From a virus (Duplodnaviria > Caudoviricetes): a stretch of DNA of 55,633 nt. The notes beneath the pieces are model-generated. The model made no database searches and was not told the DNA's origin. It saw only the letters and a program-made list of their open reading frames with translations. Position numbers and translations under genes: made by a program. Position 1 is the first letter of the stretch. Each line of letters starts with the position of its first letter. Shown here in pieces: positions 1-12,760 of the stretch. The stretch lies in the IMG/VR virus record IMGVR_UViG_3300043410_000581, positions 1 to 55,633 of that record, one strand, 5' to 3'.

Positions 1-218
1 CGTTATTCTCTTTTGCTGTATGTATCTATTATAATGCCTACCACCGACATTTTACAATAGGAAAGGGGGTTTCGTAACATAATCGTAACATAAGTTCAGA
101 TCGAAGGGGGTCGGCACTTTTCCAGGGTATGGAGAAGGAGCCTTTTACCGTCATGCTCAGGACCCCTGCAGGAAAGAAAGGAATTAAGACCTGCAGGTGT
201 CTTATCCAAACATGTTGA

Positions 219-701
219 CTAGTTGTCTTCGGAAGTTACGTCCTCAACGTCATAGTCCAAGTGCCAAAGGTTCTCACCATAGGCAGAGATGTCAAGACCG
301 TCAACGCTAACGTTGTACGAAATGTCATCCAAGTCTTCGAAGATTGAGACCTCAACGCTACCAGAGAAGTTGATAGTTCCCTGAACAGAGATAGACTTAG
401 TCAGTTCAATCTCCATTGCTTCTGCGAGTTCCTTCAAGAAATCCTCGTCCACGTTGTCGTGGTTTTCAAGGATAAGGTTCTTGACGTTGCTCTTCAATGC
501 TTCGATTGCTGCTTTTGCGTTTACCCAGCGGTCTCGCATAATGTTGTGGTCAGTAATCCAACTGTCTCGCTGTCCAGTCAGGGTTTCGATTTGCTCCTTG
601 AGTTGAGCAAGTACAGGGTGATTAGGGATTACTGTTTCACCAAGTACAAGACTAGCAGGGATAGGGTCAGGTACAAGATTTCCGTTTTCGTCATAAGCCA
701 T
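219..701 (-). CDS. Hypothetical early protein, coiled-coil, acidic C-terminus (160 aa)
   Basis: ORF with GAAAGGAAAA RBS and own promoter at 732-754. Confidence 0.8.
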   Translation of the reverse strand: MAYDENGNLVPDPIPASLVLGETVIPNHPVLAQLKEQIETLTGQRDSWITDHNIMRDRWVNAKAAIEALKSNVKNLILENHDNVDEDFLKELAEAMEIELTKSISVQGTINFSGSVEVSIFEDLDDISYNVSVDGLDISAYGENLWHLDYDVEDVTSEDN

Positions 702-754
702 TATTTTTTCCTTTCGATTGGCTGTGTTTCTATTATAAGGGATACCTACGACAT

Positions 755-1018
755 TTATTCGATGTCGTTGGCAATGCTTTCCAGTTCCTCAATGGTCTTC
801 ACCAGTTCAGCCTGAGCGTCTTCGGTGAGGGTAAGGCAAACAGTTCCAGAAACTGCCTGAGCAGAGATAGCCATAGCAAACTGAGCAAGGGCAGAGAGAA
901 ACTCGTCGCTGTCCACCTCGGTTCGCATAGCGTCAAGACCACCAGCCATCATAGCCACAAAGGGGTTGTCGCAAGCCTCGGTAGCAACCTGCTTCATTCC
1001 AAATGCGATGTCCAACAT
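755..1018 (-). CDS. Hypothetical early protein (87 aa, MLDIAFGMKQ...)
   Basis: Start reassigned to ATG at 1018 behind the RBS; the longer ORF-track start lies inside the promoter. Confidence 0.75.
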   Translation of the reverse strand: MLDIAFGMKQVATEACDNPFVAMMAGGLDAMRTEVDSDEFLSALAQFAMAISAQAVSGTVCLTLTEDAQAELVKTIEELESIANDIE

Positions 1019-1129
1019 AATTTTCCTTTCGTTTGTTGATAGTTCTATTATACAGGTGACCACTGACATTATAGGGATTTGTGGAGCGTTTCGTAAGCTT
1101 CGTAACCTGATCGTTACATTTGGGGGTCG

Positions 1130-1145
1130 GCTCCCCGAAGGGAGC
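1130..1145. terminator. GC hairpin GCTCCC-CGAA-GGGAGC abutting node motif; probable terminator or processing stem
   Basis: Directly after the stop of 1149..1640; similar hairpins at 2283-2295, 3126-3138, 3944-3956. Confidence 0.5.
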
Positions 1146-1148
1146 AGG

Positions 1149-1640
1149 TTACCCTACTACCCCTGGGTCTAGTGTGGTTGCCCATTCCGCAAGGTATTCA
1201 TCAGGGCTAGGCAAATCATCTAAATCGTGTTCAAGAGTGTATCCGCCATAAGTAGAGATAAACTTTTTGGTTTGAAAGTTGAGGGTGTAAACTGCTTCAC
1301 AAAACAATTCGTCATTCTCAAAGTCGCTGGCATCAACTAGGAATAAATCGTTACTATAAGCAACATAGCCTAGAATGTCCGCACAGGTATCACGAGATAG
1401 AGTTGGATAAACTTCACTAACAGGCTGTTCACTAGCGGCTAGTAGTGAGTTGATGTTATCAATCTCTTTATCAGTTAGAAAGTATAGTTTAGGCAACTTA
1501 CTCTCAATAAGTCTGTGGTTCTCTGCGTGGTAGAGAGCAGTAACTCCCTGTCCGCTAGGGTATCCGTCCCATTGTCCGTATTGAGCAACCTTGACTACGC
1601 CATCTCGGTCAATTACCTTGGTTAGATTACGAGTTCCCAT
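1149..1640 (-). CDS. Phage protein of unknown function with MGTR...YxxWDGYP motif (163 aa)
   Basis: Motif recognised from phage hypothetical proteins; RBS and promoter present. Confidence 0.75.
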   Translation of the reverse strand: MGTRNLTKVIDRDGVVKVAQYGQWDGYPSGQGVTALYHAENHRLIESKLPKLYFLTDKEIDNINSLLAASEQPVSEVYPTLSRDTCADILGYVAYSNDLFLVDASDFENDELFCEAVYTLNFQTKKFISTYGGYTLEHDLDDLPSPDEYLAEWATTLDPGVVG

Positions 1641-1690
1641 TAGTGTTTCCTTTCGTTGATAGTCTAATTATACTGGTAGGGTCAGACATT

Positions 1691-1861
1691 TTACTCTACC
1701 GAAACTTCTAGCCATTCCCAAACATCACCATTGATAATGTCTTCATTAGCCATTTGTTTAGCATAGTCAATCATTTCATCTTCAGTCATGTCTTCAAACA
1801 ATTCTGCGTGGTCTTCTTCAGGGTAGTATTCAAATCTAAGACTAACAGTAATCTTTTCCAT
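1691..1861 (-). CDS. Highly acidic small protein (56 aa, MEKITVSLRFEYYPEEDHAELFED...)
   Basis: Manual translation; TAATG coupling to upstream gene; stop abuts next promoter. Confidence 0.7.
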   Translation of the reverse strand: MEKITVSLRFEYYPEEDHAELFEDMTEDEMIDYAKQMANEDIINGDVWEWLEVSVE

Positions 1862-2073
1862 TACTCATACTCACTTTCGATTTCGTTTACAAAGTCATCA
1901 TCACCATCAAGGATAGCGATAGCGTATTCCATCTTCATTGAATCTGGCAGGGAATCAAGGATATCCCATTGCTTATTGGTCAGGGCATCAGTATCAAAAG
2001 TAATGGTATCCTCACAGGCAGAGAACGAACCATCACCAGAGATGTAAGCCTTACGGCTGTGGAAATCATACAT
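1861..2073 (-). CDS. Highly acidic small protein (70 aa)
   Basis: ORF track; TAATG overlaps at both ends. Confidence 0.75.
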   Translation of the reverse strand: MYDFHSRKAYISGDGSFSACEDTITFDTDALTNKQWDILDSLPDSMKMEYAIAILDGDDDFVNEIESEYE

Positions 2074-2174
2074 TAGTATCCTGCTTTCTCAAAAATGTCT
2101 AGTAGTTCATCTAGGGTTGATTCTGGTAGGGTGTCCAGAACATCTTGGTCAATGACATCAGCAAAGAGTTTCAT
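2073..2174 (-). CDS. Acidic peptide (33 aa, MKLFADVIDQDVLDTLPESTLDELLDIFEKAGY)
   Basis: Manual translation; RBS and promoter at 2199-2221. Confidence 0.7.
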   Translation of the reverse strand: MKLFADVIDQDVLDTLPESTLDELLDIFEKAGY

Positions 2175-2305
2175 TGTTTTCCTTTCGTTTATAGTTCCAT
2201 TATACATTAGGGGTCTGACATTATAGGGATTTGGGAAAGGTTTTTTAATATCGTAACCTGGTAGGCAGCTGGTGGGGTCGGCACCCCGAAGGGGTAGCCA
2301 AAGGG

Positions 2306-3022
2306 CTACTTTTTACTAGCAGAGAACAGAATGTCATTCCTAGCAAAAACACACTGTGAGCAAGTAACGCAAGCACTACCCTTTTCAGTAATCATAGCAA
2401 TCTTGCGATTGTTTTCAGGGCAAGGGACAGCAGACTTTTCCTGTTGCTCGTTGAAGTCTGCCTTACCAGTAGCAAAATCCTTAGCAAGATAAGCAAGTTT
2501 TACGCCATAGATACGCTTCAATTCCCAAGCAAGAACCTTGTTAGCAGAATCAGCAGAGAAATACAGAGCAAGGTTAGGAATGTTTACCAAGATAGGCACA
2601 GCAAAGTCTGAACGAGTGTATGCCCAGAATTGAACATCAGGGTTTAGACGGATAACAAATGCCCAAGCCCTAGCATAGTCCTCACTAAAGAAGTCGCCAT
2701 CCCAGTGGATACGGAATAACTTTTCCGCATTACGCTTTTCGCAATCTGCCTTGAAGTCTTGAATCATCTCGTCAATCAGAGCAATCATTCCGAGAGTATC
2801 AGTAGCCAGTAGTTGCTCATAGTTGCTAACCAATACTTGACGAACACCCTTGAACACCTTTTCAAGTTTTCCAGCATAGCAGATAGTCTCACAGACAGAG
2901 GTAGCCCCAGGGCAGGAATAAGCCTTACCACTAGGCAAGCCAAAAGTGTTAGCGATAGAGGCTTGAGTGCCAGCCTTGTTTACAGCGTTAGCAACTTTAC
3001 GGTCTTTAGAGCGAGTGAGCAT
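2306..3022 (-). CDS. Gp88-like (radical-SAM-related Fe-S) phage protein (238 aa)
   Basis: CPGATSVCETICYA cysteine triad, RIHWDGDF and YTRS motifs, C-terminal CP...CxxCxxC; start reassigned to ATG 3022 behind RBS. Confidence 0.7.
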   Translation of the reverse strand: MLTRSKDRKVANAVNKAGTQASIANTFGLPSGKAYSCPGATSVCETICYAGKLEKVFKGVRQVLVSNYEQLLATDTLGMIALIDEMIQDFKADCEKRNAEKLFRIHWDGDFFSEDYARAWAFVIRLNPDVQFWAYTRSDFAVPILVNIPNLALYFSADSANKVLAWELKRIYGVKLAYLAKDFATGKADFNEQQEKSAVPCPENNRKIAMITEKGSACVTCSQCVFARNDILFSASKK

Positions 3023-3142
3023 TTGGTTTCCTTTTCTTGATAATACAATTATACACCTGACCACTGACATTTTAGGGAACATCTTAAACGTGTCGTAAGT
3101 CGATCTTGCAGCTAGGGGGTCGGCTCCCCCTGTGGGGGTAGA

Positions 3143-3265
3143 CTAGAGGAAGTCTATGATGTCACCATCAAATCTAGCGTCATCAAGATAGTCTTGCAAC
3201 TCAAGATAACTAATCTCTCCCTTGGCTGCTTGGTCAAACAATTCTTGGATGTATGCTTCGTCCAT
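3143..3265 (-). CDS. Acidic peptide (40 aa, MDEAYIQELFDQAAKGEISYLELQDYLDDARFDGDIIDFL)
   Basis: Manual translation; TGATG coupling. Confidence 0.7.
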   Translation of the reverse strand: MDEAYIQELFDQAAKGEISYLELQDYLDDARFDGDIIDFL

Positions 3266-3636
3266 CAGTCTTCCTCTTCCTCTAGAATTTCAAAGGTGAA
3301 CAACGCACCCATTTCGTCATGTGAACGGCGAACGACATTGAAAGTATTTTCTTCAGGGTCAAAGTCAAACTCAAGGCTGAAGTCACCATTCAAGACTAAC
3401 TTGTCAAGGATAGTTGCTGGAGTTGCCATTGCGTATCCTGAAACATGGTTCCAATTCATGTTGGTTCCGTTTATCTTGATAGGCTGAGTGTCATCAACAT
3501 TGTTCTTGGTCTGCCATTCACCAATTAGCCATGACACATCTTCTTTCTGCCATTCCCAGCAGTCGCCATAGCAGTTGAGTTCAACGCCATCTTCATCTTC
3601 TCCGCAAACACAGTTGCTTTCAATAATTGCTTTCAT
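3265..3636 (-). CDS. Acidic hypothetical protein with N-terminal Cys cluster (123 aa)
   Basis: ORF track; RBS and promoter at 3659-3681. Confidence 0.8.
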   Translation of the reverse strand: MKAIIESNCVCGEDEDGVELNCYGDCWEWQKEDVSWLIGEWQTKNNVDDTQPIKINGTNMNWNHVSGYAMATPATILDKLVLNGDFSLEFDFDPEENTFNVVRRSHDEMGALFTFEILEEEED

Positions 3637-3680
3637 GGTTTTCCTTTCCTAGGGTTCAATTATACAGGCAGGGTATGACA

Positions 3681-3851
3681 TTATAGGGATTCGTTGATAG
3701 CCTTGCGAATGTTGGCAGACCTAGTGCCTTTTCGGTGTTCAGGAACAACGATAGTGTGCTTGGTGAGCAATAGGTTTTTGAACAACTCAGCAGAGTGAGC
3801 CTTGCGAGTAGCCTCAGCAAGTTTGTTTAGTGGTTTCTTTCTTTTCTTCAT
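3681..3851 (-). CDS. Basic small protein (56 aa, MKKRKKPLNK...), probably leaderless
   Basis: ATG 6 nt downstream of the TATAAT of the 3858 promoter. Confidence 0.7.
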   Translation of the reverse strand: MKKRKKPLNKLAEATRKAHSAELFKNLLLTKHTIVVPEHRKGTRSANIRKAINESL

Positions 3852-3960
3852 AGTCCTATTATACATCAACCCTCCGACATTTAACAGGGTTTTGGGAAAT
3901 ATTTTTTAAGGTTTTTAATGTCGATCTTGCCGAGAGCCGCCGACCCCCGAAGGGGGCTGA

Positions 3961-4077
3961 TTAGCCTACTGACTTTGCTACTCGCTCAACCTGTTCTGGT
4001 GTTGCGATAGCAAAGAAAGCCTTAGCAAGAGTTTCGTAGTCAGCGATTTCCTCAAGTTTGCCAAATGAGATTTCCAT
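3961..4077 (-). CDS. Small protein (38 aa, MEISFGKLEEIADYETLAKAFFAIATPEQVERVAKSVG)
   Basis: Manual translation; GAAAGGAAC RBS. Confidence 0.7.
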   Translation of the reverse strand: MEISFGKLEEIADYETLAKAFFAIATPEQVERVAKSVG

Positions 4078-4088
4078 TGTGTTCCTTT

Positions 4089-4271
4089 CTAGGCGAAGCG
4101 TGGGTCAAGCAGGTCTGGGCGGAAGTGGGACAGCAGGGTGGCGTAGTCGCTAATCTGTTTCATACGAGGGTCAACCTCATCATCCTCAGTAGAGGCACGA
4201 CCACCTTTCAGGACAGCCTCCATCTCGTCCATTAGGCGAGAGCATTCAACTGACATTGCTTCGAAGTCCAT
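4089..4271 (-). CDS. Hypothetical protein (60 aa, MDFEAMSVEC...)
   Basis: Start reassigned behind RBS; promoter at 4297-4319. Confidence 0.7.
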   Translation of the reverse strand: MDFEAMSVECSRLMDEMEAVLKGGRASTEDDEVDPRMKQISDYATLLSHFRPDLLDPRFA

Positions 4272-4398
4272 TGGGTTTCCTTTCGTTGATAAGACTATTA
4301 TACAACGAGCCACTGACATTTTACAAGAGGATTTGGGGAAAATCGGGATCTTTTTTAATGCTTTCGTAACTAGATCCAGAGCTGGGCGGTCGGCTCCC

Positions 4399-4429
4399 TG
4401 TGGATAACTTGGGGGGTAGCTGTGGATAA
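4399..4429. promoter_or_regulatory. Pair of perfect DnaA boxes (TGTGGATAA); second lies in the loop of a GGGGGGTAG/CTACCCCCC hairpin
   Basis: Boxes at 4399-4407 and 4421-4429 (reverse complement of TTATCCACA); hairpin 4411-4438. Confidence 0.8.
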
Positions 4430-4451
4430 CTACCCCCCCTCACCATACCTG

Positions 4452-4679
4452 TTAGGCTACTACATACTTAGTAGCAACCTCACTAGGGCGAGCAATGACC
4501 TGCGACCATTCCTCTGGCTTTCCGTCCTCAAGACGAACAGCGTAGCCAACATAGGCTTCGTTAGGCTGGATACCCTGACCAAGACGAGCCTTGATACCAA
4601 CAGGGGCATCAACCTGCTCAACAACCTTGCCAACATACTTGTTGTCGTGGGTCTTGATAGTCATTCCGATAAGGTTCAT
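4452..4679 (-). CDS. Small beta-rich (possibly SH3-like) protein (75 aa)
   Basis: ORF track; fold is a guess from the sequence pattern. Confidence 0.7.
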   Translation of the reverse strand: MNLIGMTIKTHDNKYVGKVVEQVDAPVGIKARLGQGIQPNEAYVGYAVRLEDGKPEEWSQVIARPSEVATKYVVA

Positions 4680-4797
4680 TTATTTCTCTTTTCTTTATTA
4701 GGGGTTGATACTGACTTATTTGCTAGGGGTTTTATTTGCTCTTGCGAGGCTCACACCTGCTAGGCTCATTCAGTATCTCTGTTTTGTTTATATTTAT

Positions 4798-4826
4798 ATT
4801 TTACAGGCTAGTTAGTGATTTGTCAA
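4798..4826 (-). promoter_or_regulatory. Canonical sigma70/SigA promoter TTGACA-17-TAAAAT
   Basis: TGTCAA at 4821-4826 and ATTTTA at 4798-4803 on plus strand; GACACGCCGTA immediately upstream. Confidence 0.75.
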
Positions 4827-4859
4827 GGCGACACGCCGTAGTTTCCAAAACTTTTTTAT

Positions 4860-5003
4860 TTATTTTTGGTGTTCTTCAGTAAAGGTGAAGTATCCCTCAC
4901 GCTTGCTAGGGACTTTGTGAAAACGCTTAAGCTTTCCATACAGATTAGGGGCAAGCACACCAAGACCATTACACTCTGGACAAGGGGTTAGATTATCAAA
5001 CAT
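4860..5003 (-). CDS. Small CxxC protein (47 aa, MFDNLTPCPECNG...)
   Basis: Start reassigned behind RBS; promoter at 5029-5051. Confidence 0.7.
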   Translation of the reverse strand: MFDNLTPCPECNGLGVLAPNLYGKLKRFHKVPSKREGYFTFTEEHQK

Positions 5004-5051
5004 TTCTTTCCTTTTCTTTTCTAAGTCTATTATAGCGTGACCCTCTGACAT

Positions 5052-5174
5052 TTAACCTTTGACTTTTGCGTCTGGGTGGTCTTTGAGAAACTTTGTCAAG
5101 TCAAGAATGTGGATTGCCGAAACAACCTTAGAGCCGTTTTCTAGTGAGTATTCGAATAGGGTGTACTTGCTCAT
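5052..5174 (-). CDS. Small protein, paralog A1 (40 aa, MSKYTLFEYSLENGSKVVSAIHILDLTKFLKDHPDAKVKG)
   Basis: Manual translation; RBS and promoter; paralog at 5765-5884. Confidence 0.85.
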   Translation of the reverse strand: MSKYTLFEYSLENGSKVVSAIHILDLTKFLKDHPDAKVKG

Positions 5175-5288
5175 TTGTGTTTTCCTTTTCTTCTTTATGT
5201 ATTCATTATAGCAAGGGGGTACGACATTTTAGGTACGACACGCCGTAAATCTGGAAAGTTTTTTCTTATCGTAACCAATTTGTTATAA

Positions 5289-5304
5289 TCGAACATTTGT
5301 TCGA
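5289..5304. promoter_or_regulatory. LexA (SOS) box TCGAAC-N4-GTTCGA
   Basis: Perfect match to the actinobacterial/Gram-positive SOS box consensus. Confidence 0.8.
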
Positions 5305-5317
5305 AAACGCCGACCCC

Positions 5318-5347
5318 TGTGGATAACTTTCGATCAGCTGTGGATAA
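5318..5347. promoter_or_regulatory. Pair of perfect DnaA boxes
   Basis: TGTGGATAA at 5318-5326 and 5339-5347. Confidence 0.8.
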
Positions 5348-5473
5348 CTAGAAGGGTATGTTATCTCGCTCTGCCTGGCGGTATCCAATTCCCTTAGCAA
5401 CTTTATAAGTAGTAAAAACAAGAATGATGTCCACAAGCAAGTTGAAGCCATTGTAGAAAATAATTTCGTTCAT
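5348..5473 (-). CDS. Small membrane peptide (41 aa) ending ...ERDNIPF
   Basis: Manual translation MNEIIFYNGFNLLVDIILVFTTYKVAKGIGYRQAERDNIPF; AAGGAG RBS and TAATG coupling. Confidence 0.7.
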   Translation of the reverse strand: MNEIIFYNGFNLLVDIILVFTTYKVAKGIGYRQAERDNIPF

Positions 5474-5625
5474 TAGTTAGTCTCCTTTAGGTATTCCAAA
5501 AAGTCATAGGTTTCACTTGCTTCGGTTAGGGTCATTAGTCCCTTATAGTCCTGGCATTCAGGGCATACCATTACGCTAGGGTTGTAGATGTTTTCACAAA
5601 ATACACAAACTCGTTCTTCGTTCAT
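5473..5625 (-). CDS. Zinc-ribbon protein (50 aa, CVFC-x10-CPEC)
   Basis: Manual translation; TAATG coupling. Confidence 0.75.
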   Translation of the reverse strand: MNEERVCVFCENIYNPSVMVCPECQDYKGLMTLTEASETYDFLEYLKETN

Positions 5626-5714
5626 TATTTACCTTCCTTCTTTTCGGCTTCCAATTTGATGGCGTTCTCACGAACAATTTGAGCCATCATTGCTTTTAGT
5701 TGCTTTTCGTTCAT
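5625..5714 (-). CDS. Small helical peptide (29 aa, MNEKQLKAMMAQIVRENAIKLEAEKKEGK)
   Basis: RBS and promoter at 5741-5763. Confidence 0.65.
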   Translation of the reverse strand: MNEKQLKAMMAQIVRENAIKLEAEKKEGK

Positions 5715-5764
5715 TTGATTTTCCTTTTCTATCTAAGATTAGTTTAGCACTACCCTACGACATT

Positions 5765-5884
5765 TTACTGCTTGACTTTTGCGTCAGGGTGTTCACGAAG
5801 AAACTTGCCAAGGTCAAGAATGTGAATGGCAGAAACAACCTGCTTGCCATTGAAGTCGTATTCGAATAGTGTATATTTGCTCAT
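5765..5884 (-). CDS. Small protein, paralog A2 (39 aa, MSKYTLFEYDFNGKQVVSAIHILDLGKFLREHPDAKVKQ)
   Basis: Manual translation; RBS and promoter. Confidence 0.85.
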   Translation of the reverse strand: MSKYTLFEYDFNGKQVVSAIHILDLGKFLREHPDAKVKQ

Positions 5885-5934
5885 TTGATTTTCCTTTTCT
5901 TTATAAATCTAGTTTAGCATAGGGGTCAGACATT

Positions 5935-6060
5935 TTAGCAAGTGTGAGTTGCTATTGCCTGTTCCAATTCAGCGATAGTTTTGCCCATCTCAAACTTTCC
6001 ACAAGTCTCGCAATCGGTTGACTCATAGAATCTGTCGTTCCAGTGGTTTGTGACTTTCAT
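5935..6060 (-). CDS. Small putative Zn-binding protein (41 aa, CxxC...HxC)
   Basis: Manual translation MKVTNHWNDRFYESTDCETCGK...THTC; RBS present. Confidence 0.7.
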   Translation of the reverse strand: MKVTNHWNDRFYESTDCETCGKFEMGKTIAELEQAIATHTC

Positions 6061-6173
6061 CTTTTTCCTTTCTATCTATAACTATCTAATCATACATTAT
6101 TGGGTTTGTCAATAGCAAAACACCTTTTGTTACCATTTCGTTATAATTGGGGATCGATCTTGTGCTACGTAAA

Positions 6174-6189
6174 TCGAACAAATGTTCGA
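6174..6189. promoter_or_regulatory. LexA (SOS) box TCGAAC-N4-GTTCGA
   Basis: Second perfect copy, again directly before the node motif and DnaA boxes. Confidence 0.8.
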
Positions 6190-6202
6190 AGGGGTCGGCT
6201 CC

Positions 6203-6223
6203 TGTGGATAACTCTGTGGATAA
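6203..6223. promoter_or_regulatory. Pair of perfect DnaA boxes
   Basis: TGTGGATAA at 6203-6211 and 6215-6223. Confidence 0.8.
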
Positions 6224-6247
6224 GTCAGAGTCGATCCGCCAGGGTAG

Positions 6248-6370
6248 TTACTTAGCCAACTTTTTACTAAGGGCAAGCAATTCCTCAAATTCAGTCATAG
6301 ACATAAACTCATCTCCCTTAGCAATTCGCATAAGTTCGTTGTATCGAATTTTCATTTCGTTCTTGCTCAT
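6248..6370 (-). CDS. Small protein, paralog B1 (40 aa, MSKNEMKIRYNELMRIAKGDEFMSMTEFEELLALSKKLAK)
   Basis: Manual translation; paralog at 7433-7555. Confidence 0.85.
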   Translation of the reverse strand: MSKNEMKIRYNELMRIAKGDEFMSMTEFEELLALSKKLAK

Positions 6371-6435
6371 TTTATTTTCCTTTACTGATTAGCCAGAATG
6401 ATTACTAAGATTATGATACCAAAGACCACAGACAT

Positions 6436-6636
6436 TTATTCCTGCTCATTTCCCCAAAGGCGAACAATGAGAACAACGGAAAAGATGATGAAGCCAAATC
6501 CACCAATTAGGAACGGAAACATTCCAAGACCCTCAAGACCAGTCTTGCCAATTTCATCAAGACCAGACTTAGCAATGAAGAAGAAGATGGTGGCGAGGGT
6601 AGTGATGATGATGTTACGCTTGATAGTTACAGACAT
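6436..6636 (-). CDS. Two-TM membrane protein (66 aa, MSVTIKRNIII...)
   Basis: Start reassigned behind RBS; two hydrophobic segments. Confidence 0.75.
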   Translation of the reverse strand: MSVTIKRNIIITTLATIFFFIAKSGLDEIGKTGLEGLGMFPFLIGGFGFIIFSVVLIVRLWGNEQE

Positions 6637-6688
6637 TAGATTTTCCTTTTCTTTTGATAGTTTGATTTTAGCAGATACCACTGACATT

Positions 6689-6898
6689 TTAGGCAGACAT
6701 TCCAAGTTCTGCCCTAGTCTTTTCACCATTCCAAAGTTGAGCAACGAATACGCCAACCTGTTCATCAGTGTATTCAGTCTGGCTAGCAAGCAGGGTAGCG
6801 TAGTATTCTTCATCACGCTTGATAGCAGAAGCGTCATCACTGAATGGGGCAGTCCAAGTGTCTAGTTTTGCTTCGATTAGTTTTGGTAGAATGTTCAT
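6689..6898 (-). CDS. Hypothetical protein (69 aa)
   Basis: ORF track; RBS; dual promoter (TTGACA-18-TATAAT overlapping TGTC-N12-TATAAT) at 6925-6954. Confidence 0.75.
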   Translation of the reverse strand: MNILPKLIEAKLDTWTAPFSDDASAIKRDEEYYATLLASQTEYTDEQVGVFVAQLWNGEKTRAELGMSA

Positions 6899-7040
6899 TT
6901 TGTTTTCCTTTTCTCTATACCTATATTATAAGCACAGCCTAAGACATTTGTCAAGTATATTTAGAAAAATAATTATAACGAATTTGGGGAAAATCGTTAT
7001 CAAACTTAACTTGACAAAAGCTTGAAAAGGTGCCGACCCC

Positions 7041-7061
7041 TGTGGATAAGTCTGTGGATAA
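7041..7061. promoter_or_regulatory. Pair of perfect DnaA boxes
   Basis: TGTGGATAA at 7041-7049 and 7053-7061. Confidence 0.8.
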
Positions 7062-7169
7062 CTACTTACCCCATTCCTTTATCATCTCAACCTGGAGACC
7101 TAGCAATTCTTCTGCAGACATTGTCTCAATATCTTTAGAACCATTAGCCGAAATAATTTGAATTCCCAT
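7062..7169 (-). CDS. Small protein (35 aa, MGIQIISANGSKDIETMSAEELLGLQVEMIKEWGK)
   Basis: Manual translation; RBS and promoter at 7194-7215. Confidence 0.65.
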   Translation of the reverse strand: MGIQIISANGSKDIETMSAEELLGLQVEMIKEWGK

Positions 7170-7294
7170 TTTATTACCTTTCGTTATATAAGTACTTTAG
7201 CATTACCCTCTGACAGTGGAGGGTATCGATCGGGGTAGTTATTGGATAAACATCCAAACAGCCAACAGACAAAACATTACAGCAACAACCTCCA

Positions 7295-7432
7295 TTAGAA
7301 CACCAGTCCCCAACCCATGATTAGACCCTTTTCATAGAGACCTTTGTAGAAATTACGAACAGCGTCTTTATGCTCAGGGTCAAAAGAATAGTCAATTTGC
7401 TTACCGTCTAGAGTGATGATTTCAATAGTCAT
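7295..7432 (-). CDS. Small protein (45 aa, MTIEIITLDGKQIDYSFDPEHK...)
   Basis: Manual translation; follows the B2 stop directly. Confidence 0.7.
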   Translation of the reverse strand: MTIEIITLDGKQIDYSFDPEHKDAVRNFYKGLYEKGLIMGWGLVF

Positions 7433-7555
7433 TTACTTACCCAACTTCTTTGATAGTGCCAATAGTTCTTCGAACTCGGTCATGCTCATGTAGTCATCGC
7501 CCTTAGCGATACGCATTAGTTCGTTATAGCGAGACTTCATTTCTAGAGTAGTCAT
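7433..7555 (-). CDS. Small protein, paralog B2 (40 aa, MTTLEMKSRYNELMRIAKGDDYMSMTEFEELLALSKKLGK)
   Basis: Manual translation; RBS and promoter. Confidence 0.85.
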   Translation of the reverse strand: MTTLEMKSRYNELMRIAKGDDYMSMTEFEELLALSKKLGK

Positions 7556-7606
7556 TGTTTTCCTTTTCTTTATATGATTAGTTTAGCATGGGGGTATGAC
7601 ATTGAA

Positions 7607-7780
7607 CTACATCTTAGCGTAGCCAATGCTGTATCCGTATTTCCATCCTGCTATTGAGGGGTGGCTAACAATAGCCTTTACCTCTGCCTCAGTAGTAGCA
7701 GAGAACTTGTGAACAGAGAACGAAACACCATCCTCACGAGAGCCTCGCTTGGTGATGATTACTGTGTTGAATTCGAACAT
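7607..7780 (-). CDS. Small protein (57 aa, MFEFNTVIITKRGSREDG...)
   Basis: Manual translation; RBS and promoter at 7806-7828. Confidence 0.7.
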   Translation of the reverse strand: MFEFNTVIITKRGSREDGVSFSVHKFSATTEAEVKAIVSHPSIAGWKYGYSIGYAKM

Positions 7781-7831
7781 TTATTTTTCCTTTCTTTATG
7801 TATTTAGTTTAGCACTAGGGGCAGACATTTA

Positions 7832-7924
7832 TTACTTTTTTAGCAACTTAGCAATGTCAGTGCTAAAGTTTGCCCACACTACTACTACTACTGATACTAC
7901 TACAATTACTACTACTTCAAACAT
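7832..7924 (-). CDS. Poly-Val single-TM peptide (30 aa, MFEVVVIVVVSVVVVVWANFSTDIAKLLKK)
   Basis: GTA-repeat-encoded TM segment; RBS and promoter at 7952-7974. Confidence 0.65.
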   Translation of the reverse strand: MFEVVVIVVVSVVVVVWANFSTDIAKLLKK

Positions 7925-8123
7925 TTTCTTTTCCTTTTCCTTTATGTATCTATTATAAGCACAAGGGCAGACATTACGCAAGTCAAGACACGCCGTATTT
8001 GATAACAAATTGATAACGTTAGGGGGTGTGTAGTGTCCGCACTATTTATTTGGTTTTGTTGTTTTAAATGTACGCATCGTACATCTATTCAAAATATTCA
8101 GATTTTGTCAAACTCAAATTTTT

Positions 8124-8459
8124 TCAGATTTTTGCCAGGTACAAAATTAACAAATATGTCAACGCATGAAGAAGCTGATCTGCACCAAAGTAAATCCAAT
8201 ACATACGATCTGCCTGTGTGAGATTCTTTGATAGCTTTGTCTTGATGTAATCCACATTGTGATGAATAGCAAAATCTAAGCAAGCGAGGGTAGCTGCAAG
8301 AGACAAAGGCATAAACCACATAAGAACAGTAAGGGTAAATACCATATGAATAAGAGAATGGTCTAGATAAAGGTATTTTTGCTTATGTTTAGCCATATAG
8401 TTTGTCTGAAATACAAAATCTGCGAGGTAATGCTTAACAAAAAGTAACATTAACATCAT
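8124..8459 (-). CDS. DUF3307-family membrane protein
   Basis: HYLADFVFQT...H..IH...HxxVDYxK...GADQLLH pattern. Confidence 0.8.
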   Translation of the reverse strand: MMLMLLFVKHYLADFVFQTNYMAKHKQKYLYLDHSLIHMVFTLTVLMWFMPLSLAATLACLDFAIHHNVDYIKTKLSKNLTQADRMYWIYFGADQLLHALTYLLILYLAKI

Positions 8460-8893
8460 TTTTCATCCTTACTGTCCATCTGCTCTTTGATCAGCTTCTC
8501 CGTCTGCTTCTTGACCTTAGCTCTAGGATTAGCCATAAGCACACAGCACTTACAAAACTGCTTTTCTAGGTGGGTAACACCAAATTGTTTCATCATTCTC
8601 CTAGTAAATATTTGACGGTAGCCATAAAAATAGCCATAAATGTTGGAATAGCAACAACAGCAAGCAATAAAACAACTATTTTACGGACCATGCTTATGCC
8701 ATTCTTCATCATCTCCACAAATAGCACAGACGCTATCGTTGTATGCATCGAAATCATTTGGTTCACCTACGTCTGAAAACTTGTTAACAGTCCATTTAAT
8801 GACAAAACCAACAGTAACAACAACAATAATTGCTGGGATTACGTAAATTAACGTAAAGAAAAAGATTAAAAGTAAAAAGAATACAAATTCCAT
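8456..8893 (-). CDS. Three small coupled ORFs (8681-8893 70 aa TM; 8593-8691 32 aa TM; 8456-8593 45 aa)
   Basis: Manual translation; overlapping starts and stops leading into the DUF3307 gene. Confidence 0.55.
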
Positions 8894-9120
8894 GTCTCTC
8901 CTATGGTAGGTTTTAAGTATAGCATAAAATTTTGGGGTACACAAGAGCGAAGCTCTCTTGATGAACTTATAAGCAAAACACCCATTAGCCTATAAAGAAA
9001 CTATTTTAGTATAACAAAACCCTATATTTGCTTATATGTTCATTTTAGACCATAGTAGAGTTCGTCGGATATAGTTTAAATCGCTTCTAGGGGCATCTGA
9101 GGGCTTCCTGGAAGGTGTTT

Positions 9121-9354
9121 TGTAACCGATCGTACACATTAGAAAATGTAACCGAACGTACACAAAGTTAAAGCAGAACATATTCGTCATTAAAGCCTGT
9201 AATGGAGGATATCTTATGCATTACACTGCAATGTTTTATATCTGTTTATTGCATTAGACTGCAATATTTATCCATATGGCTACGTTAGTAGCATGTTTGG
9301 ATGTGGGGTTCTCTATATCACGCCGACCTCTTTACCGCCGAGTTTTTACCGCCG
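9121..9354. repeat. Three families of short direct repeats in non-coding DNA
   Basis: TGTAACCGA(T/A)CGTACACA at 9121 and 9147; TGCATTA(C/G)ACTGCAAT at 9217 and 9250; TTTACCGCCG at 9331 and 9345. Confidence 0.75.
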
Positions 9355-9407
9355 TGCTTTATAACAGAAATGTAACAACTTAAAAAATAATGTATAATAG
9401 AAATATT

Positions 9408-9701
9408 ATGGATTTGCAAACCCTAGTCGCTATCATTGTCAGTATTAGTACTGTCCTGTCAACACTGGTTGTTGGTGTACGCTGGCTAGTCAAGCATTAT
9501 TTTGATGACATCAAGCACGAGCTAAAGCCTAATAGTGGTTTATCAATGAAAGATCAGGTAAACAGAATGGAAAAGGATATCCTAGCTATTAAATCAGAAA
9601 ACGTCAGAGGCGAAGAAGCTCATGCAAGACTAGATAATAAAATAGATCATCTAACTCAGATGTTTGTAGAGTATGTAGCACATCAGAATGCAAAGAAGTA
9701 A
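9408..9701 (+). CDS. N-terminal TM plus coiled-coil protein (holin-like or membrane protein)
   Basis: MDLQTLVAIIVSISTVLSTLVVGVRWLVK; start 9 nt after TATAAT. Confidence 0.65.
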   Translation: MDLQTLVAIIVSISTVLSTLVVGVRWLVKHYFDDIKHELKPNSGLSMKDQVNRMEKDILAIKSENVRGEEAHARLDNKIDHLTQMFVEYVAHQNAKK

Positions 9702-9945
9702 GAACCCCTAAATAAAAAAACAATCGTCAAGCATTGACTTGGCGATTATTATTTATTATTATTATATATAAACTATATATCTTATAAGTTATATATCTTA
9801 TATATTTATATATAGTCTTTTGCCCCCTACCCCCATATTTATATATAATAGCACATCTAAAAACTTTGTCAAGACCTTTTTAAGTAAATTTTATATAACG
9901 ATCTTGTAACTTTGATATTTCAGGCTGATATGATATACTATTAGT

Positions 9946-9999
9946 GGCTAGATCTGAATGTCTCTCTCATACCCACCTTTCAGGTCTAGCCTTTCTATT
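9946..9999 (+). ncRNA. Candidate small hairpin RNA with own extended -10 promoter
   Basis: TGATATACT at 9931; 13-bp stem GGCTAGATCTGAA/TTCAGGTCTAGCC; 20-nt pyrimidine-rich loop; T-rich tail. Confidence 0.4.
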
Positions 10000-10028
10000 T
10001 ATATAATCTGTGATATAATTTAAGTACT

Positions 10029-10409
10029 ATGGCAGCTACATATGGTGCAAATCCTACTAACATTCAATGGACAGTCGTCCGTGGTGATACCGCCAAACTT
10101 CGTATTGAGTTTCTTGAAAGCGATGAGACTACAGCACAGGACACATCTACTTGGGTTTATGCTGCCAGCACATTTGATGTGAAAAGCAATACATCTAGCG
10201 AACTCCAAACTGTAGCTGGCGATGGGTATGTAGACATTATTGCTTCTCCAGAATTAACAGCAACATGGGGAGCCACAAGAACTAGCACTACAGTAGCAGA
10301 ACTATCTTTTGACCTACAGGTCACTATTGATGCAGAAACAGTGTGGACTCCGATTATTGGAAAGATTGCGGTACTACCAGATGTTACCGTTAATCCAATA
10401 GTTCCGTAA
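10029..10409 (+). CDS. Virion structural protein (fibre-anchor/BppU-N-like)
   Basis: VVRGDT...FDLQVT...PIIGKI beta-sandwich pattern; precedes fibre genes. Confidence 0.6.
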
Positions 10410-12760
10410 TGTCAATAATCAGAATAACAAATTCGCCAGCAAACACAGACGTAAATGTTATCAATATAGGATCTAGCTCTGATGTCGTAAAGGTTAGCAC
10501 AGTATCTGATGCAAGTCCAGTTATTCGTATTGCATCTACTGCTAATCCTGGGTCTATTAAAATTATTTCAGATTCCCCAGAAAATACAACCTCAATCAAA
10601 CTTACTCCATATCCTGGAACTCAAGGTCCAAAGGGATTAATAGGAGACACTGGACCTACAGGTCCTCAAGGTATTCAGGGTATTGCAGGTCTAGATGGCG
10701 TTGATGGCTCAATAGGTGCAACAGGTCCCACTGGTCCTCAAGGTCTGCAAGGTCCTACTGGAGCCACTGGCTTGCAAGGTATTCAAGGTGTACAAGGGGC
10801 AACAGGACCACAGGGACCAATTGGATATACAGGTATTCAAGGTATTCAGGGTGTACAAGGCATTCAAGGTATAGCAGGTGCTACAGGATCTCAAGGACCA
10901 ACAGGCTCTACTGGACCTCAAGGTGTTCAAGGTATTCAAGGTCTCAGAGGAGAAACTGGCTCTACTGGTCCAAGAGGTCCTATTGGCTATACAGGTCCAC
11001 AAGGTGCAACAGGTCAACAAGGTTCGACTGGACCTACAGGACCTAGAGGTCTTCAGGGAGATCAGGGTATTCAGGGACCAACTGGAGCAGCAAGCACAAT
11101 AGCAGGTCCGACTGGTGCAACAGGACCTAGAGGTTTACAGGGTGAGCAAGGTGTTCAAGGACTAATAGGTCTGACTGGACCTACAGGAGCTAGAGGTGCT
11201 ACTGGATCCACTGGAGCTACAGGAGATCAAGGTATCCAAGGTCCAATAGGACCAACAGGCTCTCAAGGTGCTATTGGTCCACAAGGACCGCAGGGTATTC
11301 AGGGAGATAGAGGTCCAACAGGAAGCACAGGTCCTACAGGAGCAATTGGTGTTACTGGTCCTAGAGGTGCTGCTGGTCCTCAAGGTGTGCAAGGTCCAAT
11401 AGGTTTGCCAGGAGATGACGGACCTACAGGTCCAACTGGTTCTCAAGGTCCTAGAGGATATAAGGGCGATACAGGACCTCAAGGTCCAACTGGTGCTACT
11501 GGTGCACAAGGTTCTACTGGACCGCAAGGTACTTCAATTAATTTTATAGGCTCAGTCGCTACCCCAGAACTATTACCACTATTCTCTGATGTAAACGATG
11601 CATATGTCGTTGATTCAAATGGAGATCTTTATGTTTGGAATGGTTCTACATGGACAAACGTTGGTCAGATAGTTGGACCACAAGGTGAGTCTGGACCAAC
11701 AGGTCCTGCTGGAGAGCAAGGTGTCACTGGACCAACTGGACCACAAGGAGAAATTGGTCCTACTGGTTCTACAGGTTTGCAAGGAATTCAGGGACCTACA
11801 GGTGCACAAGGTATTCAAGGTATAGATGGACCTACTGGTCCTACTGGTTCTCAAGGAAGTGTTGGTACAACTGGTCCACAGGGATTACAGGGACCAACTG
11901 GTTCTCAGGGACCTACAGGAGCACAGGGACCAATCGGTCTGACTGGAAATGATGGACCTACAGGACCTATCGGATCAATTGGTCCTACAGGATCTCAAGG
12001 TATTCAGGGTATTCAAGGAGATATTGGACCTACTGGTCCTCAAGGTACTCAGGGTCCAACAGGACCACAGGGTATTCAAGGCTCACAAGGTCCAACTGGT
12101 CCTCAAGGAATACAAGGGATCATCGGTCCAACAGGACCAACTGGAGCAACAGGTGCTGACTCTACAGTAGCAGGTCCGACTGGTCCACAAGGTTCCCAAG
12201 GTGCAATAGGTCCAACAGGACCACAAGGAGATTTAGGACCTACTGGTCCACAAGGTATTCAAGGAATTCAAGGAGGTGCTGGACCCCAAGGTCCAACAGG
12301 ACCAACTGGTCCACAAGGAGATGTTGGTCTAACAGGTGAACAAGGTATTCAGGGTATTCAGGGTGAGCCAGGTGTAGATGGTCCTACAGGTCCACAGGGA
12401 AGTATTGGTCCTACAGGACCAGAAGGTGCAACAGGACCAACAGGACCTCAAGGCACTCAAGGACCTGCTGGATTAGACGGTGTGAATGGCGTAGATGGAT
12501 CAACAGGTCCGATAGGACCTACAGGACCTGCAGGTGTAAGTGGACTGGATGGTGCAACTGGTGCTATTGGTCCAACAGGACCTACAGGTAGCCAGGGTAT
12601 TCAGGGACCAACAGGACCATCTGGAATCCTAACAGCAACAAGCCCAATAGTGTATAATGGTACTACTAAGGATGTTTCATTAGATGCCTCGGCATTAGAG
12701 ACAATCCTAGACATTGTTTACATCAGGATAGATGGAACAATTGACGGAGGAACACCATAA
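10409..12760 (+). CDS. Collagen-like (Gly-X-Y) fibre protein
   Basis: Two long GPT/GPQ/GIQ runs separated by a small globular domain ([11 protein letters not shown]). Confidence 0.92.

Follow-up and report, generated by a model that had tools for sequence, protein, structure and literature searches.

What reads the promoters of the small-gene array at the left end of the virus record IMGVR_UViG_3300043410_000581 (IMG/VR; Caudoviricetes)? The stretch analysed, hereafter the window, comprises positions 1 to 55,633 of this record. Its first 8 kb contain minus-strand genes preceded by twenty promoters in which the bases TGTC stand exactly twelve bases upstream of a -10 hexamer of the form TANNNT, in place of a -35 element. 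A first-pass annotation had likened them to the promoters of the activator PafBC (RecA-NDp promoters) and proposed that the phage uses the host's damage response, which senses single-stranded DNA (ssDNA), as a switch for its small genes. The box as the -26 element of a PafBC-dependent promoter, read by the PafBC protein of the host, is the best single explanation, and we give it about an even chance of being right.

Number and spacing of the motif

On both strands of the window, TGTC-N12-TANNNT occurs 35 times; 100 shuffled sequences gave a mean of 11.63 matches (standard deviation 3.38, maximum 22) and none reached 35. Twenty of these matches lie on the minus strand between positions 28 and 7973, where about 0.8 would be expected by proportion (one strand, 8 kb). 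The annotation had counted twenty minus-strand copies with invariant spacing, and the motif scan and the shuffles bear out the coordinates of all of them as well as the spacing. With the two preceding bases included, AATGTC-N12-TANNNT has 19 reverse matches and one forward match, compared with 0 and 1 for the reversed control. The distance between box and hexamer is strict: on the minus strand of positions 1-8200 there are 20 matches at N12, and every other spacing from N8 to N17 gives 0-5. After TGTC, the box continues as RGTG at five of the twenty sites, as TGTG at one, as other GG types at six and as CCC types at eight. The five TGTC(A/G)GTG sites are those at 28, 1047, 3048, 4297 and 6665, as annotated, and it also holds that the site at 6925 is the only one with a canonical -35: it has the full TTGACA-N18-TATAAT (12/12 in a -35/-10 scan), while other flagged sites reach 9-10/12.

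The sites as promoters

The sites with flanking sequence share AATGTC, a -10 hexamer, an A seven bases later, a ribosome-binding site of the AAAGGAAA type and an ATG. The hexamer is TATAAT at 13 sites, TAAACT at four, and TATCAT, TAAAAT and TAAAGT at one each; an A at the seventh base after it, with a pyrimidine before the A, is present at 18 of the 19 sites with full flanks. In a position matrix made from these 19 (site 28 lacks a full flank), four blocks stand out in information: AATGTC, the -10 hexamer, the A 7 nucleotides (nt) downstream of it and the ribosome-binding site. Almost no information is found at the classical -35 position, where the array has no consensus and where TTGACA is present at one of the 20 sites. 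Taking the conserved A as +1 places TGTC at -28 to -25 and AATGTC at -30 to -25. At the two positions of a TGn element, which precede its spacer base, 9 of the 19 sites have the T and 9 have the G; in others TG directly abuts the hexamer, as in TGTATAAT. When open reading frames (ORFs) were called with a ribosome-binding-site filter, 17 of the 20 sites proved to have the start of a small minus-strand ORF 22-42 nt downstream; the other three are sites 7194 and 3858, which the filter failed to detect, and site 28, which is cut by the contig end. Leaderless starts, at the predicted +1 itself, occur at 3851 in the window, at 81237 and 81948 in the relative G005 and in loci L171-L176.

Only the functional positions are conserved. 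Spacers and flanks are unrelated among the sites, the exception being two pairs of paralogous genes, and the sites are therefore not copies of one repeat. As the annotation claimed, they drive the small-gene array, and we are practically certain that all 20 are real promoters. Were they instead copies of some repeat, or sites bound in packaging, replication or partition, they would be in the company of the DnaA-box pairs and the repeats GGCGTGTC and TTACG that the array also holds; but the fixed distances between the promoter elements and the ORF, the leaderless ATGs at the predicted start, the position of all 20 sites on the coding strand and the mutually unrelated spacers and flanks make this extremely improbable. 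When promoter candidates were picked by their -10, start and ribosome-binding site and nothing else, 200 of the 334 obtained had TGTC at N12. A two-by-two test of TGTC against a TTG-type -35 in this set gave a Fisher p=0.6; its 'neither' class (117) consists mostly of false positives inside genes.

Conservation across the clade and exchange with a -35 element

Matching arrays are present in the related records G002, G005 and G001, and in a phage contig (G008:C1) that was binned into a metagenome-assembled genome (MAG). Loci of the clade were collected through a gene of the GP88 family. The promoter type varies by lineage: in 19 of 20 relatives with a low guanine plus cytosine (GC) content, the gene strand has 6-33 sites and the other strand 0-5, the exception being L170 with two and three, respectively, and the higher-GC relatives (n=13) have 0-2 sites each. 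The annotation had suggested scanning related phage genomes, and the array motif proved to be clade-wide, with 322 non-redundant sites in 20 related arrays. Their consensus is a-A-TGTC-R-G-T-G-G-(T/C/G) ... TAtAaT, with an A at the seventh base. The TGTCRGTG form accounts for 163 of the 322, and the six bases that most commonly follow TGTC are GGTGGT (66), AGTGGT (30) and GGTGGG (27). In a scan of IMG/VR, the exact variant AATGTCGGTGGT-N6-TANNNT was present in at least 119 stretches, the highest copy number in one of them being 8.

The promoter of the GP88-family gene (3048..3069 in the window) and its orthologues in the relatives were the basis of a footprint comparison. TGTC and the -10 are kept in 16 of the 20 loci, between flanks that cannot be aligned, and six of the 20 have turned leaderless. 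The remaining four (L167, L177-L179) have TTGACT or TTGATA at N17 in place of TGTC; the box thus stands where a -35 is otherwise needed. The motif is clade-wide and under selection. Hybrid promoters with both TTGACA and TGTC are found at 6925 in the window, in L168 and L170, and in 5 of 12 promoters of the cultured Streptomyces phage Coruscant.

Comparison with PafBC-dependent promoters

The RecA-NDp box has an extended form, tTGTCRgtg. The published PafBC motif, from which the 'gg' part comes, is given as tGTCgg(N10)tA(N3)T, with its 5' part at -28 to -23 and no -35; in the same report, PafBC is lodged between sigma region 4 and the DNA, and residues R46 and R50 of PafB contact the GTC triplet (PMC8635444). 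PafBC is described as activated by single-stranded DNA, down to 6 nt, and as inactive before binding it (PMC11804915). In S. venezuelae, the M. smegmatis PafBC motif is reported not to be conserved (PMC9380542), and a 2025 paper, as cited in PMC12848934, ties PafBC to mycobacteriophage resistance.

The geometry of the 20 window sites is identical to the published motif, tGTCgg(N10)tA(N3)T being TGTC-N12-TANNNT, and the GTC triplet is present in the tGTC box position (-28 to -25) at every site. The comparison of the site matrix with the PafBC motif that the annotation had called for thus agrees in the GTC box, in the N12 spacing and in the absence of a -35.

Of 301 genomes sampled from a single actinobacterial class, 275 contain the strict form TGTCRGTG-N8-TANNNT, with counts of up to 33+30 compared with 0-2 for the reversed control; this tally includes seven unpublished genomes, which were used for it only. 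Five actinobacterial genomes of 1.4-1.5 Mb and a GC fraction of 0.44-0.51 have 7-9 such sites each, against 0-1 in the control. We call these five small actinobacterial genomes host-like. Downstream of their sites are recA, carD, DUF6504, a C5 methylase gene and a LysM gene with flanking LexA boxes. Several of the genes are leaderless, and leaderless starts are a feature of PafBC-type promoters of actinobacterial genomes as they are of the phage promoters. Two tandem WYL genes are present in all five; those of G114 were typed as PafB-like (WYL+WCX) and PafC (HTH_PafC+WYL). When restricted to TGTCRGTG, phage and host sites share a G as the next base, an avoidance of A after that and Y-A-T at the start.

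Most strict PafBC-type promoters of these small actinobacterial genomes are gathered in one stretch of about 60 kb (G134:C1:441000-468000 and the matching regions of G114, G067, G154 and G172; L126-L155). The genes that they drive there are leaderless ones of unknown function and those for TPR proteins and a C5 DNA methylase, and the stretch may be a damage-inducible island.

Host group and search for a phage-encoded reader

The host group of the phage is actinobacterial, as seen from a WhiB-family protein, kinship with Streptomyces phages, LexA and DnaA boxes and leaderless starts. The WhiB-family protein is encoded in all four long relatives; among 14 control genomes, the WhiB profile matched only in Corynebacterium. 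No tyrosine or serine recombinase (integrase) was found in five records, namely the window and four relatives, two of them rated 100% complete. From the presence of WhiB and the lack of recombinases, the clade probably consists of actinophages of the virulent type. A role of the array in prophage induction was also considered and, with no such recombinase in these records, is less likely.

A scan of genome contigs with the WhiB profile gave 11 loci, all on phage-like contigs in MAGs with mutually inconsistent labels, of which four are actinobacterial. A protein atlas search with the NlpC/P60 protein of the window returned only viral and Bacillota or Actinomycetota clusters. MAGs with clade contigs (L115-L125) bear the labels of unrelated bacteria such as Methylococcus, Polynucleobacter, Chitinophagaceae, Saccharibacteria and others, which is probably a matter of binning contamination in public MAGs.

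The annotation had left room for an activator encoded or injected by the phage. The first part of this alternative has lost ground: the window and the four relatives contain no WYL domain, which makes a phage-encoded PafBC-like activator less likely. The same records gave no match to sigma-70 region 4 above the cut-off. Pfam and PHROGs scans of 10 early ORFs and 10 further window ORFs, including two small ones in or beside the array, yielded no suggestive reader.

A possible mechanism and its alternatives

In the mechanism that we propose, the 20 promoters would be read by the housekeeping RNA polymerase of the host, each driving one to three small genes of unknown function in an array of the host-takeover type. 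AATGTC at -30 to -25, in place of a -35, would be the -26 element that PafBC-dependent (RecA-NDp) promoters have. Host PafBC loaded with ssDNA would slot between sigma region 4 and the box ('sigma adaptation') and switch on or boost the array, and the host's alarm for broken or single-stranded DNA would become a signal for phage gene expression. Resection of the linear genome as it enters, or replication of the phage, could supply the ssDNA. Each genome copy brings 20-33 boxes, compared with 7-9 strict sites in a small host-like genome; the array might thereby deplete PafBC as well, and its LexA and DnaA boxes could likewise drain LexA and DnaA. PafBC as the reader, ssDNA as the trigger and the titration of regulators are all parts that we infer from sequence. 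The complete scenario, in which a widespread, uncultured clade of virulent actinophages swapped the -35 of its host-takeover promoters for a PafBC element, ssDNA from entry, resection or replication fires 20-33 promoters together and the array acts as a decoy that draws three master regulators of host repair and replication away from the chromosome, is tentative; we consider it possible, if somewhat doubtful.

In favour of PafBC as the reader, as annotated, are the geometry, the consensus of the clade and the actinobacterial setting, and the computational tests able to contradict it all came out on its side. Several observations weigh against it. In the TGTCRGTG sets, an A stands two bases before TGTC at 150 of 162 phage sites compared with 2 of 32 host sites, and one base before it at 142 of 162 compared with 11 of 32, which means a different reader or some additional constraint. 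The RGTG extension is present in full form (TGTCRGTG) at only five of the 20 window sites. At eight, (A/C)CCC takes the place of the host GTGG, and TGTCNKACCC-N6-TANNNT has no match in any of the five host-like genomes. Compared with those of the host PafBC sites, the -10 elements of the phage are much nearer to the consensus, about half of them with TGn, and might allow the promoters to fire without an activator. The requirement for ssDNA is awkward for the very first genes of infection, which the canonical promoters at 4826-4798 and 6118-6089 could serve instead. The hybrid promoters fit an additive use of the two elements better than a strict replacement of the -35.

Part of this evidence would also suit a protein that is encoded by the phage or delivered with the virion and reads AATGTC, either as a MotA/AsiA-like activator or as a later-acting repressor, its likeness to PafBC being a case of convergence. 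The A at -30 is present at 291 of 322 phage sites but at 2 of 32 host sites, the ACCC variant of eight of the 20 window sites is absent from the five host-like genomes, a DNA-binding protein could hide among the early proteins, most of which are without a known family, and the window covers only 52% of the genome. Yet the two relatives rated complete have neither a WYL domain nor a sigma region 4 match, and the consensus TGTC-R-G-T-G-G agrees with the host regulon motif over nine positions, for which convergence is hard to credit. Moreover, a phage-made factor cannot start the first genes unless it is injected, and the replacement of the -35 by the box at orthologous promoters points to a positive role and speaks against a repressor site. 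We regard a phage-derived reader as rather unlikely. Nor is it likely that the promoters are independent of any such factor, a strong -10 with TG and RbpA/CarD being enough, and that TGTC tunes their strength or serves another sigma-adaptation protein of the host. The near-consensus -10, with TATAAT at 13 of 20 sites, is consistent with this, as are the T and G at 9 of 19 sites each in the TGn positions, the TG abutting the -10 in others, and a proposal that sigma adaptation is more general, for which AfsR is cited (PMC11804915). On the other hand, TGTC does not vary between the sites, it is as informative as the -10, it keeps its spacing exact to the base and, where it is lost, a good TTGAC -35 takes its place. 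As to another host reader, no other actinobacterial factor is known with such a box, and a literature search supplied none.

Other elements of the array

The array contains two perfect palindromes TCGAAC-N4-GTTCGA (Table 1), which we take to be the consensus of the LexA (SOS) box; the two are predicted LexA boxes. Shortly upstream of each come a DnaA-box pair and a GGGGTCGGC or GGAGCCGAC stretch. The palindromes are more than 60 nt upstream of TGTC promoters, and therefore too far away to block them. With up to two mismatches allowed, the window has five LexA-type boxes where 0.9 are expected, a number that none of 100 shuffles reached; the closest relatives (L162, L163, L192) have one each. 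The same type of box flanks the recA and LysM-gene promoters, of PafBC type, in the host-like genomes.

Perfect copies of TTATCCACA, presumably the DnaA box consensus, number eight in the window. All are on the array strand, forming four pairs directly after gene ends, and there is no perfect copy elsewhere in the window. The same sequence clusters at the chromosome start and end in G114, G134 and G172, in G114 directly after a gene with DnaA domains; because of these clusters beside dnaA in small actinobacterial genomes, the pairs look like DnaA boxes and are predicted as such. Several relatives have clusters of DnaA boxes in either orientation. The pairs may serve as a decoy, as a site for a regulator or as an origin.

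Two short repeats accompany the promoters. In 31 of the 322 clade promoters (loci L162-L194), the main TGTC has GGCGTGTC, with a second TGTC inside it, at a fixed position 17-20 bases upstream, and TTACG occurs within 45 bases upstream of 63 of the 322 sites compared with 6 of 322 in a downstream control. Downstream of the canonical promoter at 4826-4798, about 100 nt (4690-4797, minus strand) contain only a 17-codon ORF before the next gene; this stretch may be a small RNA or a long leader.

Table 1. Coordinates of promoters and other sequence elements in the array.
Position	Strand	Element	Gene served and remarks
28..49	-	Promoter, TGTCGGTGGT class, full RecA-NDp form, -10 TATAAT	Gene cut by contig end
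732..753	-	Promoter TGTCGTAGGT, TATAAT	ORF 219-701 (160 amino acids, aa)
1047..1068	-	Promoter TGTCAGTGGT, TG-TATAAT	ORF 755-1018 (87 aa)
1667..1688	-	Promoter, ACCC variant TGTCTGACCC	ORF 1149-1640 (163 aa)
2199..2220	-	Promoter, ACCC variant TGTCAGACCC	ORFs 2073-2174, 1861-2073
3048..3069	-	Promoter TGTCAGTGGT	ORF 2306-3022 (238 aa, Pfam GP88 family)
3659..3680	-	Promoter, ACCC variant TGTCATACCC	ORFs 3265-3636, 3143-3265
3858..3879	-	Promoter TGTCGGAGGG	Leaderless ORF 3681-3851; A of ATG (3851) is 7th base after -10
4297..4318	-	Promoter TGTCAGTGGC	ORFs 4089-4271, 3961-4077
4399..4429	-	Pair of perfect TTATCCACA(G) 9-mers, DnaA-box type	Intergenic
4798..4826	-	Canonical promoter TTGACA-N17-TAAAAT, no TGTC box	GGCGTGTC just upstream
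5029..5050	-	Promoter TGTCAGAGGG, TGC-TATAAT	ORF 4860-5003
5205..5226	-	Promoter, ACCC variant TGTCGTACCC	ORF 5052-5174; GGCGTGTC upstream
5289..5304		Perfect palindrome TCGAAC-N4-GTTCGA, LexA/SOS-box type	TGTC at 5226 is about 63-78 nt downstream
5318..5347	-	Pair of perfect TTATCCACA(G) 9-mers
5741..5762	-	Promoter TGTCGTAGGG, TGC-TAAACT	ORFs 5625-5714, 5473-5625, 5348-5473
5911..5932	-	Promoter, ACCC variant TGTCTGACCC	ORF 5765-5884 (paralogue of 5052-5174)
6089..6118	-	Canonical-type promoter TTGCTA-N18-TATGAT, no TGTC box	Before ORF 5935-6060
6174..6189		Second perfect palindrome TCGAAC-N4-GTTCGA	Upstream of canonical promoter 6118-6089
6203..6223	-	Pair of perfect TTATCCACA(G) 9-mers
6413..6434	-	Promoter TGTCTGTGGT, TATCAT	ORF 6248-6370; longest leader (42 nt)
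6665..6686	-	Promoter TGTCAGTGGT, TGC-TAAAAT	ORF 6436-6636
6925..6954	-	Hybrid promoter, TTGACA + one base + TGTCTTAGGC + TATAAT	ORF 6689-6898; only full -35
7041..7061	-	Pair of perfect TTATCCACA(G) 9-mers	Directly adjoins stop codon of ORF 7062-7169
7194..7215	-	Promoter cTGTCAGAGGG, TGC-TAAAGT	ORF 7062-7169; only site without A directly before TGTC
7580..7601	-	Promoter, ACCC variant TGTCATACCC	ORFs 7433-7555 (paralogue of 6248-6370), 7295-7432
7806..7827	-	Promoter, CCC variant TGTCTGCCCC	ORF 7607-7780
7952..7973	-	Promoter, CCC variant TGTCTGCCCT	ORF 7832-7924; GGCGTGTC upstream
5236-5243, 7990-7997, 4829-4836		GGCGTGTC copies, approximate positions	4829-4836 is ahead of canonical promoter 4826

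Genome and layout of the phage

The window is about half of a siphovirus genome of roughly 110 kb (the IMG/VR record is rated 52% complete), distant kin of the Streptomyces Stanwilliamsviridae. Its structural genes include those for collagen-like tail fibres, portal, protease, capsid and a tape measure protein of 1955 aa, its replication genes those for a primase, a helicase of the DnaB type and a polymerase of the DnaE type; further products are an endonuclease VII and an NlpC/P60 protein, and a search of the window for tRNA genes found none. Among cultured phages, Stanwilliamsviridae such as Coruscant and BillNye are nearest, with 43% identity in the capsid protein and 55-56% in DnaE; a nucleotide search of cultured phages with positions 1-8200 of the window gave no match. 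A related capsid protein is encoded by at least 597 IMG/VR stretches.

The GP88-family gene of the array is present in both terminal stretches of two relatives (131-134 kb), and by this homology the array probably sits in a terminal repeat. Most of its early proteins are without a family match; among the exceptions are GP88 (Pfam; ORF 2306-3022) and a DUF3307 membrane protein (8124-8459). Two pairs of paralogous mini-genes of 39-40 aa have a promoter each (5052-5174 and 5765-5884; 6248-6370 and 7433-7555), and the array seems to have grown by duplication of promoter-gene cassettes. Intrinsic terminators are not enriched in positions 1-10500 (8 compared with 7.2 expected).

A switch region of low GC content (34%; 8000-10400) separates the leftward early array from the structural genes, which run rightward. 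It has several canonical-looking divergent promoters, for example at 9872-9845 on the minus strand and at 9734-9762, 9820-9849 and 9912-9939 on the plus strand, a hairpin followed by a T-run at 9722-9747, and no promoters of the TGTC type.

Comparison with known systems

The layout of the Coruscant genome (MT711976.1) is that of the window: small genes on the minus strand fill about 11 kb at the left end, after which come the structural genes in rightward orientation. The promoters of the two early arrays have in common a TG abutting the -10. Unlike those of the window, the Coruscant promoters are of the form TTGnnn-N17-TAAGCT with an upstream palindrome, and only 5 of 12 have TGTC at N12. Between 2892 and 10415 on the minus strand of Coruscant (L009), 12 TGTAAGCT promoters share the near-palindrome catagatgca...ctacatcta just before TTGnnn, which looks like the operator of a regulator.

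Host-takeover and pre-early arrays in terminal repeats are known from the terminal redundancy module of SPO1 and the pre-early region of T5. The array of the window resembles them as a dense one-strand run of tiny genes of unknown function at a genome end, with a strong promoter and ribosome-binding site for each gene or group. It differs in that the promoters of SPO1 and T5 are ordinary -35/-10 promoters of the host type; early timing and a place in a terminal repeat are suggested for the window array by homology.

With PafBC (RecA-NDp) promoters, as described in PMC8635444, PMC11804915 and PMC6789036, the phage sites share the GTC box at -28 to -23, the 12 bases to TANNNT and the lack of a -35. 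Further likenesses are the extended consensus TGTC-R-G-T-G-G of the clade, the start 7 nt after the -10 and the LexA boxes nearby. They depart from them by lying on a genome of the virulent type, 20-33 per genome, before small unknown genes instead of repair genes, by the near-invariant AA before TGTC and a much stronger -10, and by the box variant TGTC-N-K-A-CCC, which was not found in the five host-like genomes; PafBC binding is here a prediction from sequence. PafBC-type promoters have so far been known only as a damage-response device of bacteria. The annotation had remarked that no phage with such wiring was known, and a literature search (PafBC with phage, promoter or mycobacteriophage, and this phage family) likewise found no description of phage promoters of the PafBC type; looking for the motif as text brought up only irrelevant primer sequences. 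If host PafBC does read the box, this would be the first case found of a phage early programme built on a host WYL activator that senses single-stranded DNA, and PafBC would have a role in infection. The LexA and DnaA boxes suggest a broader mimicry or draining of host regulators of DNA metabolism, and the promoters could be of use in actinobacteria as strong, compact and possibly damage-inducible elements.

T4 middle promoters have a MotA box near -30 and are activated with AsiA by 'sigma appropriation'. A comparison of PafBC with T4 MotA/AsiA is drawn in PMC8635444. Like the promoters of the window, those of T4 are a phage class in which a box about 12 bases upstream of TAnnnT replaces the -35 and an adaptor bridges to sigma region 4. 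The T4 adaptors are phage-encoded, whereas searches for WYL and sigma-70 region 4 found no phage adaptor here (the MotA and AsiA families were not searched). The T4 promoters also belong to the middle class, and the box of the window equals that of a host regulator. If PafBC is indeed the reader, the array would mirror the MotA/AsiA system of T4, with an adaptor borrowed from the host.

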